DNA of 64,000 nucleotides, taken from contig JAILGA010000158.1 of the NCBI GenBank assembly GCA_024697225.1, forward strand, positions 6,898 to 70,897, written 5' to 3'. Origin of the DNA: Lachnospiraceae bacterium. GTDB taxonomy: Bacteria; Bacillota; Clostridia; Lachnospirales; Lachnospiraceae. The notes below the pieces were generated by a model, which saw nothing but the letters and a program-made list of their open reading frames with translations, had not been told where the DNA came from and did not search any database. This document shows, piece after piece, positions 9,188-49,480 of the stretch; positions within the stretch are counted from its first letter, which is position 1, and the number at the start of each line of letters is the position of its first letter. Both the position numbers and the translations under genes were made by a program.

Positions 9188-10621
9188 TCAGACATTTATA
9201 TCGGCTTCCATGCCGAGAAGCTCTCTGTTCGCCGAAAGAACGGGCTCGACCTGTTCCTTCAGAAAACGCGTGACCTGATGCGCACTGGCGCCGATATATT
9301 TTGCGGGATCAAGGTTCGCCTTAAGCGCGGAAAGATCCTGCGTGAACTTGTCGCTCTTTGCAATCCTGTCTATGAGATCGTTGTCTCCGCCCTCCTCCTT
9401 GACGACGCGGCCTGCCTCCATGGACAGCTTTCTTATCTCCTCGTGGAGTTCCTGTCTGTCTCCGCCTGCAGCGACTTCATCCATCATTATGTTTTCTGTG
9501 GCCATGAAGGGAAGCTCGGCCATGAGGTGCTTTTCGATAACCTTTGGATAGACCACCATACCGCCGGTCACGTTGATGCACAGATCAAGGATGCCGTCCA
9601 CCGCAAGAAACGCCTCCGCCATTGCGATCCTCTTGTTTGCGGAATCGTCAAGCGTGCGCTCAAGCCACTGCGAGGAGGCGGTAAGTGCGGGATTGAGCGA
9701 ATCAGAGATGACGTATCTCGCGAGGGAGCAGATCCTTTCGCTCCTCATGGGATTTCTCTTGTAAGCCATGGCCGAAGAGCCTATCTGCCCCTTTTCAAAA
9801 GGCTCCTCGATCTCTTTTAAGTGCTGTAAAAGTCTTATGTCTCCGCCCATCTTGGAAGCGGATACCGCTATGCCTGCCAGGACGTTCATGACTCTCTGGT
9901 CCTGTTTTCTCGTGTAGGTCTGGCCCGAAACCGCCACGCAGCTCTCGAATCCCATCTTTTCCGCTATCATGGGATCCAGGCGGTCCACCTTGTCCAGATC
10001 TCCCTTAAAAAGCTCCACAAAGGACGCCTGCGTGCCGGTGGTACCCTTGGACCCCAAAAGCTTCAGCCCCGCCATGCAGTGATCGAGATCCTCCAGATCG
10101 TAAAGGAGATCCTGCAGCCAGAGGCAGGCTCTCTTTCCGACGCTCACGGGCTGCGCCGGCTGGAAATGCGTAAAGCCGAGCGTCGGCAGATCCTTATTCC
10201 CGTCCGCGAACTTTGAGAGATTCGCGATCACATTGATCAGTTTTTTCCGAAGGAGCGTCAGACCTTCGCGCATCACGATTACATCCGTATTGTCACCCAC
10301 GTAGCAGCTTGTGGCTCCCAGATGGATGATCCCCTTTGCCTTCGGACACTGCAGTCCGTATGCGTATACGTGACTCATCACATCGTGGCGGACTATTTTC
10401 TCCCTCGCCCTCGCCTCATCGTAGTTGATGTCCTCAGCATGGGCTTTGAGCTCTTCGATCTGCTCATCGGTGATGTCGAGCCCCAGCTCCTTTTCTGTCT
10501 CGGCCAGCGCTATCCACAGGCGTCTCCAGGTCCTGAACTTGAAGTCCTGCGAAAACACATGCTGCATGTCCGCGCTGGCATAGCGCTCAGAAAGCGGGCT
10601 CGTATAACGGTCTGTGCTCAT
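9188..10621 (-). CDS. purB: Adenylosuccinate lyase
   Basis: RHDVMSH, HLGATS, GFTHFQPAQ, SSAMAYKRNPMRSE fumarate-lyase signature. Confidence 0.96.
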   Translation of the reverse strand: MSTDRYTSPLSERYASADMQHVFSQDFKFRTWRRLWIALAETEKELGLDITDEQIEELKAHAEDINYDEARAREKIVRHDVMSHVYAYGLQCPKAKGIIHLGATSCYVGDNTDVIVMREGLTLLRKKLINVIANLSKFADGNKDLPTLGFTHFQPAQPVSVGKRACLWLQDLLYDLEDLDHCMAGLKLLGSKGTTGTQASFVELFKGDLDKVDRLDPMIAEKMGFESCVAVSGQTYTRKQDQRVMNVLAGIAVSASKMGGDIRLLQHLKEIEEPFEKGQIGSSAMAYKRNPMRSERICSLARYVISDSLNPALTASSQWLERTLDDSANKRIAMAEAFLAVDGILDLCINVTGGMVVYPKVIEKHLMAELPFMATENIMMDEVAAGGDRQELHEEIRKLSMEAGRVVKEEGGDNDLIDRIAKSDKFTQDLSALKANLDPAKYIGASAHQVTRFLKEQVEPVLSANRELLGMEADINV

Positions 10622-10692: not shown

Positions 10693-11916
10693 CTAGATAT
10701 CACGCACCATATCCAGTATCTCATCCGCGTACTGCGGATAGTCCCTTGCGAGCCGCTCTATTTCGTCCTTTGCACGGCCGCGGACCTTGTGCTCATTATA
10801 CTCCATTCTCTCTCTCAGAGCCTGACGTCTCCCGATCAGCTCATGGCGTACTTCAACCTCCTCGCCTGTATCTGCCAGGGCGGGAAGCTTTCTCATCCAC
10901 ACCTCGGGGTACTGCAGTCTGAAATTCCTCAGCATCGCCAGAAGATCCCTCTGAGACTCCATCATCACCTTTTCCGAGCCCCTGAGCTTGGCCCTGTCCT
11001 CTTTTTCCTTCTCATAGAGCTCATACATGTGCTGCAGCTCCTCGGAGCTCTTCACATGGTATTTCAGGACCATATAGTTTATCAGGTTCCTGTTGTTTAC
11101 ATAGCGGATCTTCACGGTATTCTGAAGCATGATCAGCCTCGATATGCCGCTGCCCGCGATCTTCTTTTCCTTTGCAGCATTCTGGCTCCTGGTGGTGATA
11201 AGCACCGCCGCTACCGCGGCAAAGAGGATCGCCAGCAGATACCCCGGCCGCACATCTATAGAAAGCATCTTCCCCAGCACAAAGAGCAGTACAAGGAATA
11301 CTATAAGGAGTACTGTTGTGAAGATCGTCAGGAAAAAGCCCGCGGAGATCCTGCGGTCCAGCTCGTCAAGCCTGTACTCATAAGCATTCCGCTCATTGTC
11401 GAGGCGGCGCAGGTCATTTTTAATCTTGCGCGACTGGTCCTCGGCATCGGACATGGTTTTTATAATTTCCTTTGTTTTGGGTCCCAGCTCGTGCATCCTC
11501 TCAAAGTCGCTCTCGCTCATTGAGACCTCACGATTGTAGAACTCCTTTCTGCCGATGGAGGCGTCGATTATCTTCTGCGCGAGCGCCGCCACATCTGCCC
11601 TGTGCTTGTCCGGGAGCGCGTCTATCTCCTCAAGGTCGTGCAGATAGGCAGTGACCGTCCGGTACTCGTACTCGAGCTCATCCATCTCCGCCCGGGCTTC
11701 GGCGATCTGTGTAAGACAAGCGTTGACAAACTCCCTGCGCTCGGCGGGATCGTCCATGTCCATGTCTTCGCGGCTGTATACGACCTCCGCCCAGTTCTCC
11801 TCGGTGGCCTCCTCGCGCGGTCTTCTCGGAGCGCGGCGGACAGCTCTTGCCTGTCCCGGCATCCTTCTTTGCCTGGCGGATGCGCGCTTTGTTCTTTTTC
11901 TGACCGGTCTCTTCAT
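10693..11916 (-). CDS. Hypothetical coiled-coil membrane protein (2 TM)
   Basis: Long charged helical regions flanking two hydrophobic segments; basic N-terminus; 4-bp overlap with upstream gene. Confidence 0.7.
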   Translation of the reverse strand: MKRPVRKRTKRASARQRRMPGQARAVRRAPRRPREEATEENWAEVVYSREDMDMDDPAERREFVNACLTQIAEARAEMDELEYEYRTVTAYLHDLEEIDALPDKHRADVAALAQKIIDASIGRKEFYNREVSMSESDFERMHELGPKTKEIIKTMSDAEDQSRKIKNDLRRLDNERNAYEYRLDELDRRISAGFFLTIFTTVLLIVFLVLLFVLGKMLSIDVRPGYLLAILFAAVAAVLITTRSQNAAKEKKIAGSGISRLIMLQNTVKIRYVNNRNLINYMVLKYHVKSSEELQHMYELYEKEKEDRAKLRGSEKVMMESQRDLLAMLRNFRLQYPEVWMRKLPALADTGEEVEVRHELIGRRQALRERMEYNEHKVRGRAKDEIERLARDYPQYADEILDMVRDI

Positions 11917-14174
11917 AACAGTCTCGCGCGGCCCAGCATGCGCATGGAATTAGCCACCGTCTCTTTTTCGCAGTCCGCGGTCTCTCTGTCAAATTCCATC
12001 AGTTTTCCGGTGTCGAGATAAACGGAGAGTGTGTTTATAAAATGATTGTCCGCACCTGCGGCGAAGAGATCCAGGGTCTCTCCCAGTCTTGTTTCAAAGG
12101 TGAGAGACTCCGGAGACAGCTCGGGTCTCGTTCCGATCGCATTGATATAGTTCTCCTCGTCCATGGAGAGTCTGAGCGCCGCAAGATATGCCTCCTTGAC
12201 CTGGGGATCGCCGCTTTGCCTGAAGGCCTTCTCCATGCATACCGCGGCGGCGCCGTAGTTAAAGAGCCTCGTATAGATCACGCCCTCGTCATAGGCAAGT
12301 CTCGCGTTCACTATCGGGTCGGGGGAGGGACCGGCGGCCTGAAACGCCCTTATCTGGCCGTAGGCTTCGGACAGTCTTCCTTCCCTTATCAGATACTCGG
12401 TTATCTTCAGCTTCTTCTCGGAGCTGTCGCGGGCATCGCCGTCCCTTAAGGTCTCCTCTATCGTTCTGGATTCACCCGAGGCAAAAAGCCCCACGTAATC
12501 CATGATGGCGCTGACTCTTGATGCCAGCGAGGTCCCTCGCTTTTTCAGTTCCCGCAGCCTGTCGGCCAGAGGTGCAAGACCGCACTCGTGCTCGATCCAG
12601 TCCTCAAGCCCCGCGGGAATGTGCTCAAGAGTGAGCAGATAGTCATTCTTTTTGATGAAATATAACAGCTCTTCCACGGAGAATACTCTGACGTCCATGA
12701 ATACGAACTCGCAGGGATGCACTGCCATTCTTCCGACACACAGCACCGGCTCCTCCACCACGCCCTTCTCAAGAGTGCGTGCGGGCGCAGAACCTGTCTC
12801 CACCGGAATGAAGCGTTCCCAGTGGCCGCCCTCCGACGGGAACATGTCGCCGAAGCCCTGATCCGTAACGGCGAGCCTTATCCTGTCAGGGGAGAACATG
12901 GTCACCTCCATGCGGACCCTTGCTACCCTGCCGTCAGATCTGCCGGAGCCCGGACCCAGTTCAAGACCGTCCAGCTCAAGCACCTCCGAGCGGGTGATGC
13001 CGTCCGAAAGGGGCGTCACCTCAAGGACCACTCTCGGATCCTTCTCCAGTATGACATCCACCTGGGCCTTCTCCTGATACCAGCATCTGCCGGCATCCAG
13101 AAGCGCCCGATAATGACTGTTTCCCTGTTTTCTGACCCTGATGCCCACATTTGCCCTGATGCTGTCGGGCCCGAGGAACGCCGTATCCTCCGCCTCATTA
13201 CTGTCAGCTACCGCATATACCGCGCCTCTGCTGAACAGATTGTTGCCGAGAAAAACCCTCCTTCCGCGGCAGGCATATTCCAGGGATTCGCCAAGCCACG
13301 ACTCGTCAAAGCCGCTCCCCAAAAAGAACACCGCCGAAACCTCGTGTCCGGAAATGCTCTCCTCCAATATCCGAAGCATCGCCCTGTCTTTGTCTTCTGC
13401 CTCATCGGGGAGGGGCTCCTCCTCACTCCTTGCCACCATGGCGACAAAAGGTTTTGTATTGTGGTTTACCGTATATCTGTAGCTTACGAGTCCCGACTCA
13501 TTTCCGCTAAACGCAAGGACCTCGCTGCCGCCGCTTTCCGACGGTCTGTTCTTCATGTAATAAAACAGGCTCTCCGAAAAGGTGCACCAGCTGATCCTCA
13601 CACTTTCGGGAAGTGCCACAACAAGATCCGACGCCAGGCTCTTCATCATCCTGCCCGCGTTCCCGGATCCTCCTTTGAAAACACCGGGATCCGCCTGATC
13701 ATACGTATCCACAGGATCCGTGAAGGCAGTCCCCTCATCCGGGACATCAACTGTCAGTACCAGTCTCCCTATTACGTCCAGCCCCGTGGCGGGACCTGCG
13801 ATGTCCATGACGAGAAGTGCGAGCAGCTTTCTGACATACAGCGCAAGAAGCGAAACGCCCAGGAAGCTCTCGCCTGCGATATTCACCTCGCCTCCCTCAA
13901 GGGCCAGTTCATAGAGCCTTCCTATGCCCTCAGCCTCTTTTTCGGCCACGGCCTTAACGGCATCTCTGCCGAATATCCACTGCCCGCCGTTCTTTCTCCT
14001 TGCGAGTGCCAGCGGAATATCATAAGCCTCGGTTCCGGCAATATCCGAAAGGGTCTCCGGCTCATCCGAACCGGGTCTTAAGAAGCTCACCTGAGCGGAG
14101 TCGCTTTTTATCGCCACGCCCACAGCAAGCTTTGCAGCCGTCGGTTTTTCTACAGAAAATGCCATATCACTCAC
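11913..14174 (-). CDS. DUF5716-type protein; divergent Hsp70-like N-terminal part plus C-terminal TPR-like domain
   Basis: Motif-by-motif resemblance to DnaK (see findings); DUF name from recall of Lachnospiraceae annotations; overlaps both neighbours. Confidence 0.6.
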   Translation of the reverse strand: MSDMAFSVEKPTAAKLAVGVAIKSDSAQVSFLRPGSDEPETLSDIAGTEAYDIPLALARRKNGGQWIFGRDAVKAVAEKEAEGIGRLYELALEGGEVNIAGESFLGVSLLALYVRKLLALLVMDIAGPATGLDVIGRLVLTVDVPDEGTAFTDPVDTYDQADPGVFKGGSGNAGRMMKSLASDLVVALPESVRISWCTFSESLFYYMKNRPSESGGSEVLAFSGNESGLVSYRYTVNHNTKPFVAMVARSEEEPLPDEAEDKDRAMLRILEESISGHEVSAVFFLGSGFDESWLGESLEYACRGRRVFLGNNLFSRGAVYAVADSNEAEDTAFLGPDSIRANVGIRVRKQGNSHYRALLDAGRCWYQEKAQVDVILEKDPRVVLEVTPLSDGITRSEVLELDGLELGPGSGRSDGRVARVRMEVTMFSPDRIRLAVTDQGFGDMFPSEGGHWERFIPVETGSAPARTLEKGVVEEPVLCVGRMAVHPCEFVFMDVRVFSVEELLYFIKKNDYLLTLEHIPAGLEDWIEHECGLAPLADRLRELKKRGTSLASRVSAIMDYVGLFASGESRTIEETLRDGDARDSSEKKLKITEYLIREGRLSEAYGQIRAFQAAGPSPDPIVNARLAYDEGVIYTRLFNYGAAAVCMEKAFRQSGDPQVKEAYLAALRLSMDEENYINAIGTRPELSPESLTFETRLGETLDLFAAGADNHFINTLSVYLDTGKLMEFDRETADCEKETVANSMRMLGRARLL

Positions 14175-17100
14175 CCGGAAGCGGGAACAGTTTTCCGCTC
14201 AGAAACTCATTTTTGTAGATCAGATAAAGCGTATCCTTTACCGCCTTTCTGTCGTTCACCGCCTTGGCTCTCATAAGCCTTGCGGTGAGAGCATATCTCG
14301 TCTCTCCCTCGGGATCCGCCTCGTCATACCCGCAGTTTAGCACCCCCGAGGTGACGAGCCTGTCGGTATCGCCGTCGCTCACTGTCAGGAAATAGACAGC
14401 CTTCTCGCCCGGATACAGAACCTCCCCAAGAGTGTACATTCCGGGATAAGGCTCGCGCATGCGGCCGGGTATCCAGACGCTCCGGGCATCCCTGCCGGTG
14501 CGTTCCCCCGCATCATCCCTGTCATACCTTTTCACCCAGGCGGTGACGGCCATACCCTGATCGCCAGCCCACTGGATATAGCGCATCCCCTCGCCGAGCG
14601 AAAGAGCCGGAAGCCTGTCGGAATACCCGGTAAGGAACGGCATTGAAAGCTCGTTTTCACCGAGCTTTGAAAGAAAGTCATCCGCCACCTCCATCTCGTC
14701 GGCCGCGGCTTTTCTGCCCGAACTCCTGTCGGCATGGAACTTGAGATAAGCAAGCCGTATGCCGTCCGTCATCTCCTCGCCGGTAAGAGCAAGGATCTTT
14801 ATCCTCTCGGCAATGAAAGCGCTCATGGTGCCGGTACCCCTTATATACCCGTCGGCCACCCTGTCGATATACCTGATCTGAAGATCCGTCCGGCCTCCGT
14901 CTTTGACAAAGGTTCTGAAGATCCTCTCCTCCTGATCGGTGTGTCCGCCCGTATATATGAGCTGCTCCAATATTCTCTCCGCCAGCGGCAGCGTATTCAC
15001 GGAGAAGGAGCCGCAGGCTCTGTATATCGCCAGTTCGTCCTCCAGAAACCCCGAGTAATCCCTGACCACGCACGAAAGTATGCTCTCATCGTATTTGCCG
15101 GTCCTGAAGGCCGCAATGGCGAGTCTCACACCGTCCTCACCCCCGGGGAAGACGCCTCTGTCCATCGCACGCGAACAGAGCCGGTAGAGTGTCCTGTCGC
15201 TCACTCCGAGAAAGCCGAATCTGAGAATCCACTCCGCCGCAGTTTCATAGGCACCTGACAGCACCAGCATCTCAAGGATCTCACCTCTCGTCCGCGCTCT
15301 CATCCTGCCCGGATGCGAGCGCGGGATGTAATCCGAAAGCTGTCTCACGAAGTCATTGTCGTAGTAGAAACGTATCAGTTCTTCGGATATCTCGTTCCTG
15401 CACCTGGCCATCAGCTGGTCGGATTCGGCAAGCCGCCTGTATCTGTCCACATTTTCAGACGTCACCGACATCCTGCCGGCCTCAGTGAGATACAGATTGA
15501 TGTTGGCCTTCCCCTCTCTGAGGAATGGCGTTATGCTGTCATAGCTCTTCTCATCCACGAGTCTTCTGGGAGTTCCGACCTTGTTCCAGACCATATCCCT
15601 GTTCTTTACCTGTCCCGCGGGTCTTGCGTAGCGTCTGCCGGCCGCGTCCTCAAGAAGAACGGCCGATTCGCCGGAATATATTGTGACCCTTGCCCTGCCG
15701 TCGATAACAGGGAAGACCCTCTCTGACCTGAGCCTGTCATAAACAACCACTACACGTCTCACCGACGGATCACCTATCTCGTAGAAAGCTGTGTGGATCG
15801 CCTCAAAGAAGCGCTCCGCGCTGATGGGATCCGAGGGCTGGATCGTGGAAAAATGTGAATAAAGAGCGCTGAGATTCCTGTCTATCCTTCCCTTTGCCAT
15901 CTGTTCAGCGACAAATCTCTCTATCTGCGGGAGATACTCGGCATACAGAGCCGGCTCCTCCTCCCTGACGGACATGACATAGCGGTACAGCAGCGCATTT
16001 TTGTCGACGGGAAGCTCGGATCTGTATGAGAAATACATGAGCACCTGTCTGGGTATCTCCATGTCTCCCGTATTCCAGTCGCCGTCGGGCTCCGGCAGCG
16101 ACATCATATAGTATTCATAAAGTCTGGTGATGCGGCTGTCATTCTTCACCCCGAGCCTGTACCACCTGAAGGCCTCCGCGTCCGTGCGTCCCATCTTTAT
16201 CATGAGCGCACACATCGCATCCACTGCTCCCGATTCCGGATCCGCTCTGTAGCAGGCTTCGAGAACCCTGTACATCCTCTCGCAGCCCTTCTTCTCCCTT
16301 GCCAGTATCCACACGACCCTGTCTATCAGCGGTCTCGGTATTGCATCGTGCCTTGCGGCAAAGGTGAGACAAAAGAGCGTCAGATCATCGATCTTTTTGA
16401 GGACAGAAGGATCCTGTGCCATGAGATCCAGCGCCTCCACATAGAGCAGGGGACTCCTGCAGCCGTTCGCGAACTGCTCGGAATAAAGCTTCATCCTCCT
16501 GGTATTGCCCTGAGCTCTGTCATCAAAGAGGAACTGTAGTATCCACGCGATCCGCCAGTTCTCCGGATTGGCGCGGAGCATGCCTGTGATGATATCCTCA
16601 ACAGCGGCTATCTTTTTTTCATCCCTTGAAATGAGCGTCTCCAGATACAGGAAATACGCCCTCATCGTGTTGCCGTAGGCCGCGGTCTCCTCGACGCTTG
16701 TACGCACATTGTCAAGCACCCACACGGCCTCGGATTCCCTGGCTGCCGTGATCAGATAATGCGCCGTATACAGCTTGAATCTCACATCATCAGGGGCCAT
16801 TGCCGTCATATCCGCGACTGTCTTTGCGGTCTCTATGAGCCACTCTCTGGAGCGCTTCTTTCCGAGCTTGTAATCGACATAGCTCCTTATGAGCTTCATC
16901 TCGAGATCCTGCTTCTTTGCGTGGTCTGCGGGAATCCCCTTCACAACATCAGCCGCTCTTGTGACCTCTATCCTGATCTCAAGATCAGCGTAGGGCGAGC
17001 GCAGCCTTATCCGTCCGAAGTTCCTTCCCGCATGAAGAGCGTCATAACTGATATCCACAGGGAGCCTCGAGACATTGCCGAGGAAATCCCTGTCCATAAG

Positions 17101-17823
17101 TCTGTCCTTGCGGAGGATCAGAAAATCACCCTCGGAAGAGATGTCGAGTCTGGTATACCCCCAGCCCTTTCTGGTCACGGTGATCATCTCCTCGGTGTCC
17201 TCGCTTATCCTGTCGAGGACGATGTCCGTGCGGTCGACGGAGTACTCCATCGGATCCTTCTTCCTTATGGCGACCAGAAACTCCTCCACGTTGTGGCCCT
17301 TGTCGTCCGATGCCGCATCCGTGCCCGAAAGTCCTCTGTATATGCTGAAATACTTGCGTTCCGATCCGTGAAAGAGCTCAGCGAGCCCCGGAACATAGAA
17401 AAGACGCACTGCTTCATCGAAGCTGCGCCTTGCCAGATTGGCAAAATGAAAGAGATTGCGGATCTCTTCCTTTTCACCCTCCCTCTCTCCCGCCACGACG
17501 GGATACGGGGTGCGGACCCTGAGAGTGACCTCGACACAGGCCTCTCCCCTGTCCGTTATCACCGCAAAGCAGGTCTTTACGGTATCTCCGCCCTTCAGAC
17601 CATCTGAGCGGTATTTAAATCCTATCTCCTCCGAGACACCCGCAAATTCGGGCGTCAGAACAGTAAAAAGGGGGTCGTCGACCTGTACACGGCCTTCCAT
17701 GACCGTGTCATCGTCTGATGTAATCATAAAGGCACTCTCCCCTGTCTCGCCGGGGTCGACCGTTATCTCCAGTCTGTCGGCGGAAAGGGAGAATGCCCCC
17801 TGTCGCTTTAGATCTTCCATCAA
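14167..17823 (-). CDS. DUF5717-type large protein (Ig-like beta domains plus helical/TPR-like repeats)
   Basis: 1218-aa ORF; beta-rich N-terminal segments followed by helical repeats; DUF name from recall. Confidence 0.65.
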
Positions 17824-19556
17824 TTCCTGAAGTAGCTTATGGTATCCTGCAGGCTATCGGCAAGCAGCTGAAGCTGGGTCGCCGATTCGCTGATGACCGA
17901 GAAGGTGGCCGAGAGTTCCTGCATGGATGCATTGGTCTCCTGTGTCGACGCCGCATTCTCCTCGGATATGGCTGAGAGATCCTGGATTATCTCCACAAGT
18001 GACATCTTGGCATTGTTCAGATCCGTCACCCTCTCGGAGATCTGCTTGGAGCTGAGCTCCACATTTCCGACATTGGAGAACATATCCTGCATATCCTGCT
18101 GCGTCGAGGTGAGCTGCTCACCCTGTGCCGCAAAATTCTCGTTGAGTTTGTTCATGACCTCGACAGAGGCCTCGGAATCTGAAAGGAGTTTTTCAACAAT
18201 ATCCTTGATCTGATCCGCGCTCTGCTTGGACTGATCGGCAAGCTTCTGGATCTGGCTTGCGACGACCGCGAAGCCCTTGCCGGCCTCACCGGCTCTGGCT
18301 GCCTCGATGGAGGCGTTCAGCGAGAGCAGGTTCGTCTCTTCCGCTATATCCGTGATGGCATCCGAGAACTGGCTGATGCCCTTTGCACTCTCGTTGGTAG
18401 ACTGTATCGTATGGTCGATCTCCTGAACGGAAGCCATGACCTCCTGGCTCTGGGAGATCAGTCTCTCCATTGCTTCCATGGCATTGTCACAGGATTTCTT
18501 CATCTGAGTGGTATACTCATCAAGCTGGGATACATTGTCGCTTATATCATCGATGTCCCTGCCGATGCCGTCAGTGTTCGTGGCCGCTGTCTGAATGCTC
18601 TCGGCCTGTGACACCGCACCCCTGGAAACCTCGTTGACGGCGTCAGATACCTGACTTGAAGCAGTGGAAGCCTGGCCGGCGGAATCCGAGAGATCCTTAC
18701 TGGAAGCTCTGAGTTCCTCGCTCATCCTCTGTGTCTCACCGATGATATCGGATATCTTATTTCTGAACTGGAGCGTGCTGTCGACGATCGTTCCGAGCTC
18801 ATCCTTTCTTGCGAGCATGGAATTGTCAACCTCCGCATTCAGATCACCGCCGGCGAGTTTGTTGATGCTCTCGGCGATGCCCGTCATCTTCTTGGTGGTC
18901 CTGAGGGCCACAAACAGACCCACGATGAGGATCACCAGGACCATTACAGCGGAAATGGCAATCATCTTTATGACAATGGCAAATACATTTCCCGACACGT
19001 CGGTGGTCACACGGCCCGCAAAGACCATTCCGATCCTGGTGCCGTCGGGCTGTTCAAGGGGAACATAGTACGCGTTGAAGGGCTTTCCGCCAATTACAAG
19101 ATCCGGTGCAAAGTACTCCTGCCCCTTATTGATAACCGTTTCAACCACCTTGTCACTTGCGGTGGTCCCGATCATCCTCTCGGAGGAATTCTCCTTATAA
19201 AGAGTTGTCAGCATTCTTGTGTTTCCGAAGAAGATGGTATACTCGATGCCGGTCTGCTTTTTCAGATTATCAAGTATGGCATCCTGGCCGCTGATCTTGT
19301 GTTCGCCCTTATACAGGTCGCCGTTGGCATCCAGCGTCCAATCGCCCTCATAGAGGCGCTCAAATTCATCGTCAAGATGCTCGGCTGTGGCCTTTAACTC
19401 CTCCTCGATAAGCTTTTCATAAGTATTATTTATCTCGATGCCCGCCATGACTGTCTCAATGGCAGCAACAAGAACCACCGCAACAAGCGCGATCATAATG
19501 ATCTTGATCAGAAGTTTTCCGTTTCTCTTTACCATAACTGTCTCCGTCTGTGCCAT
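17820..19556 (-). CDS. Methyl-accepting chemotaxis protein (Cache sensor, HAMP)
   Basis: Two TMs, HAMP (RKDELG), signalling core [26 protein letters not shown]. Confidence 0.93.
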
Positions 19557-29767: not shown

Positions 29768-30409
29768 TCATTTCTTGTCTTTTGAATCCTTGTCGTCTTT
29801 CAGGACTTCTGTTTTGTCAGCATCTTCTTTTTTATCTTTGTCATCTGACTTATCTGAGGATTCCTTGTCATCAGCGGCTTTGTCTTCTGTCTTTTCGGCG
29901 GCATCCTTGTCGTCCGAAGCCTTTTCAGATGCTTTTTCGTCGGTCTTCAGGACTTCTGTTTTTCCCTCATCCGCCGCCTTATCGTCCGTTGAAGCCTCGT
30001 TCTTTGCCCCCAGTTCCTTGGGAACATCAATCGCTTCGCCGGCGGGTTTTGCTGCTTTGCCCGTCATTGTGCATTTGCCCTGGAATACAGCGTTCTCGTC
30101 GATTACCAGGCGCTCCGCAGTGATATCTCCAAACACGCGGCCGGTGTCACTGATCTCAACTTTGCCCTTGGGGCACTCCACGTCTCCGTACACATCGCCG
30201 GCTGACATAAGGTTGCTTGCCTTGATGCCGCCGCGGACGACGGCCTTGTTACCCACTACGACGCTCTCCTTGGTCCTCACGGCGCCGTTCACAATGCCGT
30301 CCACACGGATCGCATGCGTAGCAAGCACCGAACCCTCTATGGTCACATCCGACGAAATGATCGTGACTATCTTGTCATTTAAAGCATCATCAACCTTACT
30401 TCCAAACAT
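29768..30409 (-). CDS. Bactofilin (polymer-forming cytoskeletal protein) with charged low-complexity tail
   Basis: TIISSDVTIEG...IRVDGIVNG...VFGDI...LVIDENAVFQGKC. Confidence 0.88.
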   Translation of the reverse strand: MFGSKVDDALNDKIVTIISSDVTIEGSVLATHAIRVDGIVNGAVRTKESVVVGNKAVVRGGIKASNLMSAGDVYGDVECPKGKVEISDTGRVFGDITAERLVIDENAVFQGKCTMTGKAAKPAGEAIDVPKELGAKNEASTDDKAADEGKTEVLKTDEKASEKASDDKDAAEKTEDKAADDKESSDKSDDKDKKEDADKTEVLKDDKDSKDKK

Positions 30410-30463
30410 TATGCTCTCTCCTCCTTAACACTGATGCTGAAATAATCCGTAATCGCGTATTCC

Positions 30464-31273
30464 TTAGCCGTCTATCTCCGTGATCTCCTCGGGGTCAATG
30501 AACACGTCATCCTGCTTGATCTGGTATCCAAGCGTATTGTTTCCCGCAACCACGAAAAGGATACTGCCCTGAATGACCTCATCGCCTTCACGGACCATGG
30601 CATCCCCCGCATTTCTGTAAATACTCACATAACCATTGCCGTGATCTATCTCTATCCTTCTGCCGTACTTCTTATCATCGGTCACAGCGCTAACTATACC
30701 GTCGCCGGCTGCCACAACACTGGAACCCTCGGCGATATCGGAGAAGTACAGGATCGGATCCCCCGGCACATCATCGGGAGACAAACCGTTCTGCTCGCGC
30801 TCAGCCAACAACGCCAGGGCTTCTTCAATAGTGTCGGCCTCCTCCGGATCTCTGGTGTTCTGCATTGTCGAGGCACCCATTACCGGAGCACCTGTCGGCA
30901 GATGCTTCTGGGCACTTTCGCTCTCTGCGTTGGCCTCCTTGACCACTTTGGAGCTGATGGACTTGTTGAGCTGATCCACCTTTGCGCTAAGCTCCGCATT
31001 CTTTGACTCAAGAGACTCGTTTTCCTTGATAAGAGCGGAGATCCGGTCACTCTGGATCACGGTCACACGCTCCAGACCGTCTATGGTCATGACGCTGTAA
31101 ACTATATAACATATTAGAAGCACAATAGCAAAAAACAGCCCGAAGGCCAAAAGCTGAGAACTGACGTGCCCCAGCCGAACCGTACCCGTGCTGCCGTCCG
31201 AATCATCGGATACCACTAAAATCGTGTAACCACGACTGTGCCTGTGCTTTTTGGGCGTTTTATCTTCAAGCAT
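30464..31273 (-). CDS. Membrane-anchored coiled-coil protein with degenerate M23/LytM domain
   Basis: TM, coiled coil, VVAAGDG...YGRRIEIDHGNGYVSIY...FIDP; Zn-binding His motifs missing; start moved to the ATG just after a promoter. Confidence 0.8.
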   Translation of the reverse strand: MLEDKTPKKHRHSRGYTILVVSDDSDGSTGTVRLGHVSSQLLAFGLFFAIVLLICYIVYSVMTIDGLERVTVIQSDRISALIKENESLESKNAELSAKVDQLNKSISSKVVKEANAESESAQKHLPTGAPVMGASTMQNTRDPEEADTIEEALALLAEREQNGLSPDDVPGDPILYFSDIAEGSSVVAAGDGIVSAVTDDKKYGRRIEIDHGNGYVSIYRNAGDAMVREGDEVIQGSILFVVAGNNTLGYQIKQDDVFIDPEEITEIDG

Positions 31274-31280
31274 GAAAAGG

Positions 31281-31309
31281 ATTATAGCATATTGGCTGTA
31301 TGCACTCAA
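31281..31309 (-). promoter_or_regulatory. sigmaA-like promoter giving a probable leaderless M23-bactofilin mRNA
   Basis: TTGAGT-N17-TATAAT-N7-ATG, no SD. Confidence 0.65.
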
Positions 31310-31402
31310 TAAAAAAACTTTACTTTTTTTCTGCGGTATGGTAAAGTTTTGTATGTTGTGATCATGCAACGGGCAAGTTGTTTTTTTCAGGAGGTATTAT
31401 CA

Positions 31403-44864: not shown

Positions 44865-47264
44865 TCATATCTCCGATTTCCTAAGTCCCTTCTCGAGAAG
44901 CCTTGCAAAATCGCCCTCCGAGATGGGCCTGTAGAAATAATAGCCCTGTATGTAATCGCAGTTGACGCTTCTTAAGAAATCGAGCTGATTCTTGGTCTCA
45001 ACGCCCTCGGCCGTCACCCTTGCACCCAGAGCGTGGCTCAGCCTTATAGTAGACTCGATGATGGACTCCGCCTTCTGTCTGATACCGATCTTTCTGATGA
45101 AGCCTATATCAAGCTTTACGATGTCGAAGTCAAAGCTCTCCAGCGTTGAGAGCGATGACATGCCACTGCCGAAGTCATCAAGAAGTATGCGGACACCCGC
45201 CTTCTTAAGCTCCTCGAGGTAGCCCATGGCATTCCTCTCAAGATCGGCATAGGCAGACTCCGTCACCTCTATCCTGACAAGCGCCGGCGCATGATCCGAG
45301 TTCTCGAATCTCTCGATGATGTGGTTCATCAGCGTTGGATCGTAGAAATCTATCCTCGAAAGATTGACAGCGCAGGGCACGACGGGCTTCCCCGCCGAGG
45401 CGCGCTCCTCCACAAAGTCAAGAACCTTGTCTATCACGTAGTAATCCAGAGCGGAGACCTTGCCGCCGTCCTCGATGACGGGAATGAAGTCAGCGGGTGA
45501 TACCAGTCCCATCTCATGGTGATTCCAGCGGATCAGAGCCTCGGCGCTCCTTATATCGCCGGATTTGGCATCGACGACAGGCTGGTAATAAGGCCTGAAC
45601 TCACCGGTATCCATGGCGTTCTTTACATCGGAAAGGAGGACTCTCTGTCGCACATAGTTCTCCCTCACCAGATCGTCATACCAGGCAAAGCAGTCGCCCT
45701 TTTCCTCCCTGATCGACTTCTCTGCGATACGGGCGCGGTCGATCATATGCCCTACGGTGACGCTCCTGTCCTTTATCCCGTATATACCGAACTGGATCTC
45801 GAAGTGGTACTCCTTGTACCCCGTCCTGTAGGTCTGTCTGCTCAGAGCATTGAGGCGCCTGGGGGTGACATTTTTGCTGTTCACGAGCATCACGTAGTGA
45901 TCGCTCTCGAGGCGGCCCAGGATCAGAGGTTTGAGTGTCTGGCGGATCGCGTCTCTTGTCTGGAAGATGACCATGTCCCCATTCTGGGAGCCGAAGAGCT
46001 CGTTCACCGCTTTGAAACCTTTGACATTGGTATAAATGATCAAGAAGTCCTCATCATATGACAGGGTGGGGATAAGGCGCTCTGCCTCGTCCATAAAACC
46101 GGTCCTCGCATATTCATCGGTCATCCAATCGTGATCTATGGCTGTGGAGATGTCAAACCAGGTGCAAAGATAGATGTCGCCGCAGCCCGGCACTTTGCGG
46201 ACGCGCATGTTCTTGGCTCTGCGGCCGCTCTCCGTCTGCATATGAGCGGTGCGGACAAAGCTGCCCCTCTCTTCAACCTCGGCTGTGACCACGTCGAGTG
46301 CTGACTGATCGATAAAGGCATCTATCTCCTCTTCGACAAGTCTGACCGCTATCTTCTCGCAGATCTCGCTGTAGCCGGAGCCCGCCCCCTCGAGAATCTC
46401 CTGGGCATTTCTTCCCAAGTGGTAGAAAAAGCATTTTCCCTTTTTCGGATCAAGGGTAAAGACCATGTCATAACCGTCCGCAGCCAAAGCCGACCAGAGC
46501 GGAGCGCTTATATGAGACGCAGCGGGGATCACGACTCCCGATTCGACCGGTTTCCTGCAGCCATCCTCAATAAGCTCGCCGGTTCCGTAAAAATGCGTGA
46601 CCCCGTTTCTTATCATAAAATAGCTGCCGTCAGGGATAAGATAGAAATGTCTGCCATAGCTGTCAGGCACGACTATATCCTCGATATAGCGCTTGCCGTC
46701 GAGCAAGATATCCTTACAGGAATTAGCATGCGGAACGATCTGAACGGCGCTTATGCCGAGGCCTTCGGCAAATCTCAGAAAATGCGGGCTTATGCTCTCA
46801 CCCGGAAGCTCCGGGATCAGATATGCCTCCTCGGCCGCATTTACACTGCCGGCGCTGAGAGCCAGAAGCACACCCTCAAATTCATTAAGGCACTCTTTCA
46901 GATGCCTTTCTCTCATAAATTCAAGCTGTGTGGGCGCATGTCCTCCTGCAAGAAAGATCACATCAGCCCACTCTACGAGTTCCTCAGTGCTCCTCTCCTC
47001 GCGGTCATCGACTATGATCAGGCCTCCGACCTGCATTTCATCAAGCTCCAGAGCGTCCCTGAGTTCCTTTGCCCTGAAGTCATTTTCTTCGTGACCGGTC
47101 GGATCACTGGAAAAGAACAACAGCTTGGCCTCATGCGGCCAGACTGAAAGAAGCCTGTCGGCGAACTCGTTCTCGTCCGAAAGCTCCGGAGCCCTGTAGT
47201 CTCCGCCGCGATCCTGGTATGGTATGAAGCTGCTTGTGAGAAAGGCTATCATGTCGGTCCTCAT
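44865..47264 (-). CDS. Peptidase S51-like domain fused to degenerate GGDEF and intact EAL domains
   Basis: FLAGGH, ALSAGS, IVPH; RLESDHY at the GGDEF site; YYQP, AEALIRW, AVNLS, EVTES, DDFGSG, AEGVET, QGYYF. Confidence 0.85.
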   Translation of the reverse strand: MRTDMIAFLTSSFIPYQDRGGDYRAPELSDENEFADRLLSVWPHEAKLLFFSSDPTGHEENDFRAKELRDALELDEMQVGGLIIVDDREERSTEELVEWADVIFLAGGHAPTQLEFMRERHLKECLNEFEGVLLALSAGSVNAAEEAYLIPELPGESISPHFLRFAEGLGISAVQIVPHANSCKDILLDGKRYIEDIVVPDSYGRHFYLIPDGSYFMIRNGVTHFYGTGELIEDGCRKPVESGVVIPAASHISAPLWSALAADGYDMVFTLDPKKGKCFFYHLGRNAQEILEGAGSGYSEICEKIAVRLVEEEIDAFIDQSALDVVTAEVEERGSFVRTAHMQTESGRRAKNMRVRKVPGCGDIYLCTWFDISTAIDHDWMTDEYARTGFMDEAERLIPTLSYDEDFLIIYTNVKGFKAVNELFGSQNGDMVIFQTRDAIRQTLKPLILGRLESDHYVMLVNSKNVTPRRLNALSRQTYRTGYKEYHFEIQFGIYGIKDRSVTVGHMIDRARIAEKSIREEKGDCFAWYDDLVRENYVRQRVLLSDVKNAMDTGEFRPYYQPVVDAKSGDIRSAEALIRWNHHEMGLVSPADFIPVIEDGGKVSALDYYVIDKVLDFVEERASAGKPVVPCAVNLSRIDFYDPTLMNHIIERFENSDHAPALVRIEVTESAYADLERNAMGYLEELKKAGVRILLDDFGSGMSSLSTLESFDFDIVKLDIGFIRKIGIRQKAESIIESTIRLSHALGARVTAEGVETKNQLDFLRSVNCDYIQGYYFYRPISEGDFARLLEKGLRKSEI

Positions 47265-47283: not shown

Positions 47284-48972
47284 TTAAGCATTTATCTGCC
47301 GGATCCCCGTATCAGTCTCATCCGGGTTTTCCGTCTTTGCCTTAAGTTTAACCTTCACTGTGGCTGATACCGCAACCGTGCCCGATTTGCCGGGTTCCCC
47401 GAAGTATACGGTGATCTTGCTCTTTCCGTTCTTTAACGCCGCAAGCATTCCGTCCTCCGAAACAGTGACCACTGCGGGTTTGCTGCTCTTTATCATGTCA
47501 GGCTTTATGCCGCCCAGATCCGTACTAAAACACTCAAAGATGTCTGTCTGTACGTCCGCATCCGTCATTTTGGGAATCTTGAGCGCGGGCTTTTTGACCA
47601 CATTGATATTGGCCTGCGCTACCGTGACGTATTCGGTCTTTCCGTCGGAATTCGTGACGGCCTGCCTGGCCTCGACGACTGCCTGCCCCTTCTTTTTCGC
47701 GGTCAGTTTACCTGCCTTTGTAACAGTCGCATACTTCTGATATTTCTTAACTATCCGGTACCTGTCGGCCTTTATGTCAAGCTCCCCGAAGCAAAGGTCG
47801 GCGATATTAAGCTTCCTCCCCGCCACCAGAGTGATGTCCTGGCCGTTTTGGACCGTTATGACCTCCTCAGGCTGTTTCTCCTCTTCCTGCTTCTTGCCTT
47901 CTTCTTGCTGCCTGCCGCCATAGACGGGCCAGAAGGTATCTCTGGCAAGATTCCCCCTTGTCTTTCCGACCTCGATCTTATTCGCCGGAACCTCGTAGTT
48001 CCTGCACCAGCAGTCACCGGCATCCCAGGCGCCATCGGCATCGTTTGTCACGCTCCGCATCCTCGCCATGGTCCTGGGGTAATCCTTTTCCGCCTCATAG
48101 CCAAGGTATTGAAGCTGGCCGTCAATGGTATGCCAGTCGAGATCGTTTCTATCGCAATATGACTTCAGATCGCTCCATCTGGTGTAGCCTCTGTTTGGAT
48201 CATCATGCCACTGGCAGATGCCGTAGCTAGTGCCGTTGTCTCCTTTAGCCTTGGGATTGAAGGAGGACTCGGCCATGATATTGGCCATGATACCGCAGGC
48301 CGCCGCGGCATTTAAGGACATCTCCTTCGTAAAGTATTTAAAACAGGCAGCCGCATTCTCGCCCTTCACAGCGGATGATGCATCAAAGAGTGCCTCCTCA
48401 CAGCCACCTTCGGCAGAAACAGCGGGAACAGACGCAGTGTCGCTTTCTCCTTCAGCGGGAACAGACGCAGTATCAAACACGTCCGCATCATCCGCGAGAT
48501 CCGCAAACACCGCGATGTACGGGGCGTCAAGAACCGCGTCATAAGCCGCGGAAAACTCATAGCCCTCTCCGGGCACCGGGACAAACTGGAAATATCTGCT
48601 CGCCGAAGACTCATAATCCTCTCCTGCGCAAATCCAGATCACAGGCACATCAATAAGGGTTCCCGAAGGAGAGACCGCGGAAAGCTTGTCCGGGAAGCCT
48701 GCTGTCAGTCTGTCAAGAGACGGCTTGCTGTCCGTGTAGAAAAATGATCTGTAAAGGCCGGTTTCAGAATATCCGCAAAGAATGCTCCCCTCTTTTACGG
48801 TCTTATTCATTTCTGTAGCAGAGATATTTACTGCATCTGTATCAATAGTTGAAAACACTTCAGCTGCGAAGGAAGGATGCGCATACAGTCCTGAAAGGAG
48901 AAAGAAGCACACACACAGGGATATGGCGCGCAGAACCCTGCCCGCACCACGGCCGCAGAAGATTCCTCTCAT
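47284..48972 (-). CDS. Secreted phage-tail-lysozyme-like cell wall hydrolase with basic Ig-like C-terminus
   Basis: AACGIMANIMAESSFNP, SYGICQWH, GQLQYL, YEVPA; signal peptide; start at MRGIF 1 nt after the upstream stop. Confidence 0.75.
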   Translation of the reverse strand: MRGIFCGRGAGRVLRAISLCVCFFLLSGLYAHPSFAAEVFSTIDTDAVNISATEMNKTVKEGSILCGYSETGLYRSFFYTDSKPSLDRLTAGFPDKLSAVSPSGTLIDVPVIWICAGEDYESSASRYFQFVPVPGEGYEFSAAYDAVLDAPYIAVFADLADDADVFDTASVPAEGESDTASVPAVSAEGGCEEALFDASSAVKGENAAACFKYFTKEMSLNAAAACGIMANIMAESSFNPKAKGDNGTSYGICQWHDDPNRGYTRWSDLKSYCDRNDLDWHTIDGQLQYLGYEAEKDYPRTMARMRSVTNDADGAWDAGDCWCRNYEVPANKIEVGKTRGNLARDTFWPVYGGRQQEEGKKQEEEKQPEEVITVQNGQDITLVAGRKLNIADLCFGELDIKADRYRIVKKYQKYATVTKAGKLTAKKKGQAVVEARQAVTNSDGKTEYVTVAQANINVVKKPALKIPKMTDADVQTDIFECFSTDLGGIKPDMIKSSKPAVVTVSEDGMLAALKNGKSKITVYFGEPGKSGTVAVSATVKVKLKAKTENPDETDTGIRQINA

Positions 48973-48973
48973 A

Positions 48974-49480
48974 TCAGCCTTCCCAGGTATATTCCTCTTC
49001 TTCATCCTCGTAGTCTTCCTCATCCTCCTCTTCCTCTTCTTCCCAGTCCTCGTCTTCCTCCTCTTCGTAGTCTTCCTCTTCTTCCTCTTCCCAGTCCTCG
49101 TCTTCTTCCTCTTCGTAGTCTTCCTCTTCCTCTTCTTCCTCTTCGTAGTCTTCCTCTTCTTCCCAGTCCTCTTCGTCTTCTAGATCTTCCTCATCTTCCT
49201 CGTCTTCCCAGTCTTCCTCATCCTCGTCCTCGTACCAGTCCTCTTCCTCGTCCTCGTCTTCCCAGTCCTCGTCGTCCTCCTCGTCCTCCTCGTCCCAGTC
49301 TTCGTCCTCGTCTTCCTCATCATCCCAATCCCAGTCTTCTTCCTCTTCCAGGTCTTCGGGATCGATATATTCTATCTCAAAGAGCGAGTCCTCGGGATTA
49401 CTGCTGCAGCCGGAAAGAGCCACGGCAAGAGCCGCGGCGGTACAAAGACATATGCATTTTATAAATAATGGTCTCTTCAT
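48974..49480 (-). CDS. Extremely acidic low-complexity lipoprotein
   Basis: Lipobox LSGC; mature part almost entirely Asp/Glu with periodic Trp/Tyr; tightly packed between neighbours. Confidence 0.75.
   Translation of the reverse strand: MKRPLFIKCICLCTAAALAVALSGCSSNPEDSLFEIEYIDPEDLEEEEDWDWDDEEDEDEDWDEEDEEDDEDWEDEDEEEDWYEDEDEEDWEDEEDEEDLEDEEDWEEEEDYEEEEEEEEDYEEEEDEDWEEEEEEDYEEEEDEDWEEEEEEDEEDYEDEEEEYTWEG

Follow-up and report, generated by a model that had tools for sequence, protein, structure and literature searches.

The described systems closest to the locus considered here belong to chaperone biology, flagellar placement and bacterial conflict. Next to the canonical Hsp70, DnaK, stands Ssz1 of the eukaryotic ribosome-associated complex, which passages of PMC7083937 describe as a lidless, non-hydrolysing Hsp70 and a fixed subunit—it binds ATP and nascent chains, and has a J-protein as its partner at the ribosome. 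HubP/FimV and FipA are membrane proteins tied to FlhF-type flagella (excerpts of PMC12826062 and PMC11620751); a 2025 review states, in the part available, that FlhF landmarking beyond bacteria with a single polar flagellum remains unclear (PMC12826062). The HSP70/GrpE theme of the GAP1-N2 conflict systems, as sketched in part of Kaur et al. 2020, joins HSP70 paralogues to GrpE and tetratricopeptide repeat (TPR) genes in Firmicutes, with vWA domains in other themes and a sporadic distribution. Here we set against these systems a gene block in a 64,000-nucleotide stretch of Lachnospiraceae bacterium DNA (assembly GCA_024697225.1, contig JAILGA010000158.1, positions 6,898 to 70,897; hereafter the window), which encodes a large protein of the DUF5717 families (A), a fusion protein whose first half resembles Hsp70 (B, with halves B1 and B2), and a predicted membrane-anchored coiled coil (C).

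The block consists of four genes in the order A-B1-B2-C, of which B1 and B2 are fused in the window. The sequence-only reading had seen a three-gene module; its three minus-strand open reading frames, with the lengths given in Table 1, are confirmed, as are the overlaps (8 base pairs (bp) for A/B, 4 bp for B/C, 4 bp for the neighbouring chemotaxis gene and A) and purB downstream. Tight spacing is indeed conserved, with gaps of at most 30 bp at 70 of 79 A-B1, 67 of 73 B1-B2 and 29 of 34 B2-C junctions, but B1 and B2 are separate genes in most relatives. All 11 same-genus loci compared have the order A (~1200 amino acids, aa), B1 (~433), B2 (~280), C (~397). The B of the window aligns with B1 over residues 4-458 and with B2 over 473-738; 5 of the 81 loci carry the fusion, which maps to three positions on the tree of A. 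The families named in that reading were also the right ones: A matches DUF5717_N at residues 11-889 (E 9e-233) and DUF5717 at 900-1213, and B matches DUF5716_C at 193-456, with Pfam scores of 775, 137 and 220 bits against cut-offs of 25, 25 and 34.7, respectively. To our knowledge these families (PF18984, PF18983 and PF18980) have no assigned function; B2 has no Pfam family of its own, and C matches no family above cut-off in Pfam or NCBIfam.

Our best reading, at a probability of about 0.4, is that A-B1-B2 (the core) forms a scaffold left over from a larger operon, and that C is a rod docked on this scaffold which would help FlhF-type flagella to be placed or assembled. None of the described systems tested accommodates the block, and we therefore class it as new in kind, with a mechanism that is so far a proposal.

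The core is near-universal in the Lachnospiraceae, the dominant bacteria of gut and rumen, in which it has yet gone unstudied. In a family draw of 151 Lachnospiraceae genera, one genome each, B1 was found in 148, always as a single copy, and A is present in 24/24 genomes of the genus itself. Across a class draw of 300 genomes, few of them other members of the order, DUF5717_N exceeded its cut-off only within the family.

Comparison with a wider order draw (201 genomes, including 21 Lachnospiraceae) suggests where the core came from: the Lachnospiraceae block appears to be the trimmed remnant of a ten-gene Lachnospirales multi-Hsp70 operon. In other families of the order this long operon encodes, in turn, a membrane protein (not always present), an immunoglobulin-like (Ig) protein, a solenoid protein, the Hsp70 H1, a coiled-coil GrpE, the degenerate Hsp70 H2, the Hsp70 H3, the Hsp70-vWA fusion H4, the TPR protein T and, in some families, C. 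From the solenoid gene through T it is contiguous in 16 of 23 loci (L098-L120, where a few divergent genes were assigned by position), the rest being dispersed or cut by contig ends. By homology, A corresponds to the Ig and solenoid genes, which are separate in most other families of the order (~395 and ~900 aa), B1 to H2, and B2 to T. The Pfam model PF18980 under-detects divergent H2 (it missed those of G164 and G101), so we used the H3 profile to trace the long operon; H3 occurs in 73/201 order-draw genomes and in 0/21 of the Lachnospiraceae among them. Database records bearing H4 come mostly from Defluviitaleaceae or unplaced Clostridia, with one each from Lachnospiraceae, Turicibacter and Ca. 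Epulonipiscium. One Hsp70-vWA gene (L023:15311-17389) has a C-terminal stretch of 292 residues that is 66-81% identical in 65 other loci, which is unusually high for a protein that nobody has studied. In the long operon, then, a bacterial Hsp70 family has grown into a fixed, lidless set of paralogues that lacks a J-protein gene; one lineage retained its dead member alone.

The sequence-only reading had called B a pseudo-Hsp70 with a peptide-binding domain, and B1 bears this out. The B1/H2 profile aligns end to end with the intact paralogue H3 (hhalign probability 100, E 2e-56) and matches DnaK over positions 10-418, covering both the nucleotide-binding and the beta substrate-binding domain (E 6e-22). 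With residues mapped on the genome's own DnaK, using what we take to be the E. coli DnaK numbering, K70 and E171 are each kept in 0/79 B1 sequences, T199 in 2/79 and G229-G230 in 0/79; in H2, K70 and T199 are likewise kept in 0/27. In contrast to these two, H1, H3 and H4 retain the phosphate-1 motif, K70, E171, D194 and GGGT in 28/28, 27/27 and 22/22 sequences. The interval from D194 to G341 has a median of 71 residues in B1 against 143 in DnaK, so that about 70 residues of subdomain IIB are gone, and B1 stops after the beta sandwich, before any alpha-helical lid; the lid is missing from all Hsp70s of the operon, with a vWA domain in its place in H4. B1 thus descends from an Hsp70 and has lost the ATPase residues, subdomain IIB and the lid. 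Judged by sequence only, it would be lidless and unable to hydrolyse ATP, and it is predicted not to bind ATP. B2 combines a small helical N-domain with TPR-like helices, is a separate gene of ~275 aa in most relatives, and is homologous to T; homology between its N-domain and the helical insert of A was unsupported (probability 1.7).

These features raise the possibility of a dedicated chaperone, in which a lidless B1 would hold clients without ATP and pass them to DnaK, with A and B2 as TPR co-chaperones and C as a tether at the flagellar export site. The coverage of the DnaK substrate-binding domain by the B1/H2 profile, the ancestral operon with its three intact Hsp70s and GrpE, and the precedent of Ssz1 as a lidless binder of nascent chains (in the passages cited above) all lend it some plausibility. 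However, no J-domain was found among the scanned genes of the long operon, and the window block contains neither a J-protein nor a GrpE gene; outside the block this genome has only the canonical DnaK and GrpE, encoded elsewhere. Ssz1 itself still binds ATP and works with a J-protein, whereas B1 is without subdomain IIB, every operon Hsp70 is lidless, and a paralogue set so strongly conserved would suit fixed subunits better than general chaperones. We therefore regard the chaperone reading as rather unlikely, and favour the core as probably a non-enzymatic complex, the likeness of B1 to Ssz1 being one of analogy.

A domesticated anti-phage or conflict system, akin to the GAP1-N2 HSP70/GrpE theme or to Zorya, is a further candidate origin. 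HSP70 genes lie with GrpE, vWA and TPR genes in Firmicutes GAP1-N2 neighbourhoods (part of PMC7159879), and the first gene of the long operon in some families (L023:3171-4532), which encodes a membrane protein with three hydrophobic segments, has a long helical tail that weakly matches the tail of ZorA (E 9e-6). Kinship between that membrane protein and C was also considered, and none was detectable. The GAP1-N2 systems are sporadic, whereas the block is a conserved single copy at a recurring locus; the Pfam matches of the long operon include no TRAFAC GTPase, FNIII or effector domain, GAP1 itself, which may lack a Pfam model, having had no separate search. PADLOC returned no full-length match to a defence component in the block, only weak and partial matches confined to coiled-coil, TPR or Hsp70-fold stretches. 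Taken together, a conflict origin seems very improbable.

The predicted structure of A (residues 1-1198; pLDDT 83, pTM 0.55) supports the earlier description of an Ig and solenoid protein. It is modelled as an Ig domain (11-103), a helical insert (109-185), a second Ig domain (193-289) and a TPR-like solenoid (299-676), followed by a beta insert (678-735), a second solenoid (758-1077) and a beta sandwich (1080-1163). The Ig domains of A match a PapD-like domain of HYDIN (Z 11.0, root-mean-square deviation (rmsd) 2.4, 98 aligned residues) no better than the Ig domain of a GH115 glycosidase (Z 11.5, rmsd 2.3, 101 aligned), so the HYDIN PapD-like/ASH/MSP match assigns a fold class only. Foldseek gave solely solenoid and Ig rows of low TM-score for A, in a fold search that hardly covered its C-terminal half, and a single-sequence search of the PDB returned nothing for A or B. 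Neither protein has a hydrophobic N-terminus, in agreement with the reported lack of signal peptides.

C was described earlier as a coiled coil with two transmembrane segments, and its model points the same way. The model is all-helical (pLDDT 89.5), with helices 135-218 and 223-286 forming a hairpin and hydrophobic segments at ~188-224 and 220-245 at the hairpin tip—C is therefore predicted to be a long antiparallel coiled-coil hairpin with two transmembrane segments (~188-245). If so, it would form a cytoplasmic rod of roughly 20 nm, with about 130 residues per arm, anchored by its tip in the membrane. Butyrivibrio homologues are 45-48% identical. Fold searches returned generic coiled coils only (nothing in Foldseek at E 0.001; best VIA Z 11.9, rmsd 18), the Atlas gave only unnamed clusters, and a HubP/FimV or FipA family turned up neither when 114 C homologues were compared with Pfam nor when C was compared with NCBIfam. 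Two unusually long C frames, one in frame with a glutamyl-tRNA-synthetase-like sequence (L228:5942-8845, G536; identified by eye, and possibly a lost stop) and one with an acidic N-terminal extension of ~400 residues (L227:6889-9258, G633), were rejected as informative fusions.

The distribution of C bears on its role. In the family draw, C occurs in 57 genera and the flagellar protein FliG in 72; both are present in 57, FliG alone in 15 and neither in 79, so that FliG accompanies C in 57/57 genomes. Among the 15 FliG-positive, C-negative genera, 14 have no FlhF and lower FliG scores (129-137 bits, against 145-157), while FlhF was found in 11/11 C-positive genomes tested, one slightly below cut-off. 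The remaining genus (G564) has native-type flagella and FlhF with no match to B1, B2 or C, through either true loss or an assembly gap. In a FliG tree of 20 rows, which includes 8 of the 15 C-negative genera, the 8 C-positive rows and G564 form one clade with 100/100 support; the flagellar operons of this clade contain FliL, preceded by CodY in those loci that extend far enough. The order draw gave C with FliG in 117 genomes, C only in 3 (all with FlhF, completeness 90-96%), FliG only in 20 (16 of them in family f21) and neither in 61. Related genomes are not independent, but a FastTree of A with 81 rows requires 12 changes of state in C, 10 of them forced by well-supported branches. C appears in 5/200 class-draw genomes, all within the family and none outside the order. 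A link of C to sporulation was rejected by a SpoIVA control (39/57 C-positive, 63/94 C-negative). We consider it highly probable that C is tied to the FlhF-type motility system. Since it is kept almost only with FlhF-type flagella, C likely contributes to positioning or assembling the flagellum. Of the roles first suggested for the block, this link speaks for localisation rather than quality control.

Fourteen Lachnospiraceae genera, the C-negative ones just described, thus have flagella that lack FlhF. The seven of them placed on the FliG tree (L210-L216: G593, G656, G559, G548, G626, G598 and G655) branch apart from the native clade and make up at least two groups, which suggests that a transferred flagellum replaced the native one. 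Flagellar clusters do move by lateral transfer among such clostridia, according to part of PMC6130602. In family f21 (L217-L219), the basal-body gene run ends after a fliJ-sized gene, unlike the longer flagellar operon of other loci.

Several observations weigh against our reading. Of the 57 C-positive family genomes only 6 were examined for FlhF, the others being typed by FliG score; the four FliG-only order genomes outside f21 have no C match and a flagellum of untyped kind; C lies outside the flagellar operon, and no recurring sigma-28 box was found upstream of 39 C copies. In G586 a decayed C (L278:856-1854, about 55-60 bits) persists with neither FliG nor FlhF; this copy was missed by the profile count and tallied under neither. 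Co-occurrence cannot separate roles in placement, motor, export and the chemosensory array. The core, moreover, stands without intact C in 91 of 148 core-bearing Lachnospiraceae genomes, and among the 21 Lachnospiraceae of the order draw the same 8 are without C and FliG and all 8 retain the core, so the core should have some other, flagellum-independent job. In turn, C and FliG occur where the core is absent in three families, f2, f7 and f18 (counts for f2: C 18/21, DUF5716 0/21, H3 0/21), and four such genomes re-checked with wider profiles still gave no core; C therefore does not need the core. Finally, an order of aminotransferase, operon, C and valS recurs across families, with the operon or C sometimes cut out, so the adjacency of C could be inherited gene order.

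A rival reading takes C and the core to have separate functions: C would serve the native flagellum or the chemoreceptor array as an accessory in its own right, sharing a promoter with the core through inherited gene order, and the core would be an unrelated housekeeping system, for instance in shape or division. In most other families sampled C lies beside valS, away from the operon, and the flanking aminotransferase and valS genes are often kept as well; valS is likely the ancestral downstream gene. Against independence, C is adjacent behind B1-B2 in 57/57 family genomes (at a distance of 739-2137 bp from the B1 match), and it follows T in further families, even though the flanks are often swapped (the aminotransferase is upstream in only 23/81 loci). 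A is also shortened, to 1127 aa or less, in 13/48 loci without intact C, in about 8 independent events, and in 0/33 loci with C, and nine positions of A are conserved only where C is present, with none in the reverse—although kinship inflates both counts. The A of G586 has lost its first Ig domain; the other 47 fetched C-negative loci have no C beside the core. On this evidence we judge full independence doubtful. C is not a fixed partner of the core, and the idea of an obligatory three-protein machine found no support: the genes do co-occur, as the sequence-only reading expected, but only with the exceptions given above. That C binds the core and that the core marks a site is a proposal we hold tentatively. 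A complex prediction limited to residues 45-407 of C and, from A, residues 9-295 and 900-1218 scored 0.00 twice and counts neither for nor against such docking.

Returning to the scaffold-and-rod reading, the core of A, the dead Hsp70 B1 and B2 would likely act as a non-enzymatic cytoplasmic scaffold. B1 may serve as an ATP-independent binding module, Ssz1-like and bound to B2, while the Ig and TPR surfaces of A could arrange the complex at one set position in the cell; the rod of C would connect that position, or the membrane, with the flagellar or chemosensory apparatus. For the long operon, the three intact Hsp70s and GrpE might remodel the scaffold using ATP, the Lachnospiraceae having kept the static parts only. 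By analogy, C may play for FlhF the role that HubP/FimV and FipA play in gammaproteobacteria. A bolder version, and one we consider somewhat unlikely, is an undescribed Lachnospirales machine that marks a cell site, built from Hsp70 paralogues, in which three lidless Hsp70 ATPases and a GrpE would remodel an Ig/TPR scaffold, and which in Lachnospiraceae would have been frozen, free of ATP, around a dead Hsp70; C would be its membrane adaptor for FlhF placement, a Firmicutes counterpart of HubP/FipA without shared ancestry. No sequence or fold match to those proteins was found, and C is a candidate landmark by co-occurrence: its restriction is landmark-like, with FlhF in every C-positive genome tested and in 0/14 C-negative flagellated Lachnospiraceae besides G564, the exception being the decayed copy of G586. 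C is a concrete, single-gene landmark candidate in a group with subterminal flagella (part of PMC3720852).

The sequence-only reading had taken the function of the block to be undescribed, and we found no paper on the genes. Full-text searches for DUF5717, DUF5716 and Lachnospiraceae FlhF, in which subscription journals are mostly uncovered, gave no description of the block or of a C-flagellum link, and the locus tags bpr_I2217-2220 gave no mention; DUF5716 brought up one unrelated paper. Supplementary files lay outside the search, and the genes may appear in proteomes published for Lachnospiraceae or in the source data behind PMC7159879.

The coordinates of the block and its neighbours are collected in Table 1. 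The gene for the methyl-accepting chemotaxis protein (MCP) does overlap A, as reported, but lies directly upstream of A in 1/81 loci; it is a local neighbour outside the conserved block. On the other side, 71 bp separate C from purB.

Table 1. Position of the block, its parts and its neighbours in the window.
Feature	Position	Strand	Remarks
A, DUF5717 scaffold	14167-17823	-	1218 aa, start TTG then ATG
B (B1-B2 fusion)	11913-14174	-	753 aa, GTG start
B1 half of B, pseudo-Hsp70 (DUF5716_C)	12795-14174	-	about residues 1-460
B2 half of B	11913-12770	-	about residues 469-753
C, predicted coiled-coil hairpin with two transmembrane segments	10693-11916	-	407 aa
MCP	17820-19556	-	overlaps start of A
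purB, downstream neighbour	9188-10621	-	common behind block in genus

Promoter and terminator counts were no different from those of shuffled sequence, Rfam gave no match in the window, and two RNA runs contained only near-identical pieces of ~150-350 bases, informative on neither expression level nor co-transcription. Elsewhere in the window, all on the minus strand, a bactofilin gene adjoins an M23 peptidase gene (29768-31369), a pairing known from cell-shape loci; a Peptidase-S51-like domain is fused with GGDEF and EAL domains (44865-47264); and, amid other large secreted proteins, one of 579 aa (47284-49023) has a phage-tail-lysozyme domain at residues 222-362 and a likely signal peptide.

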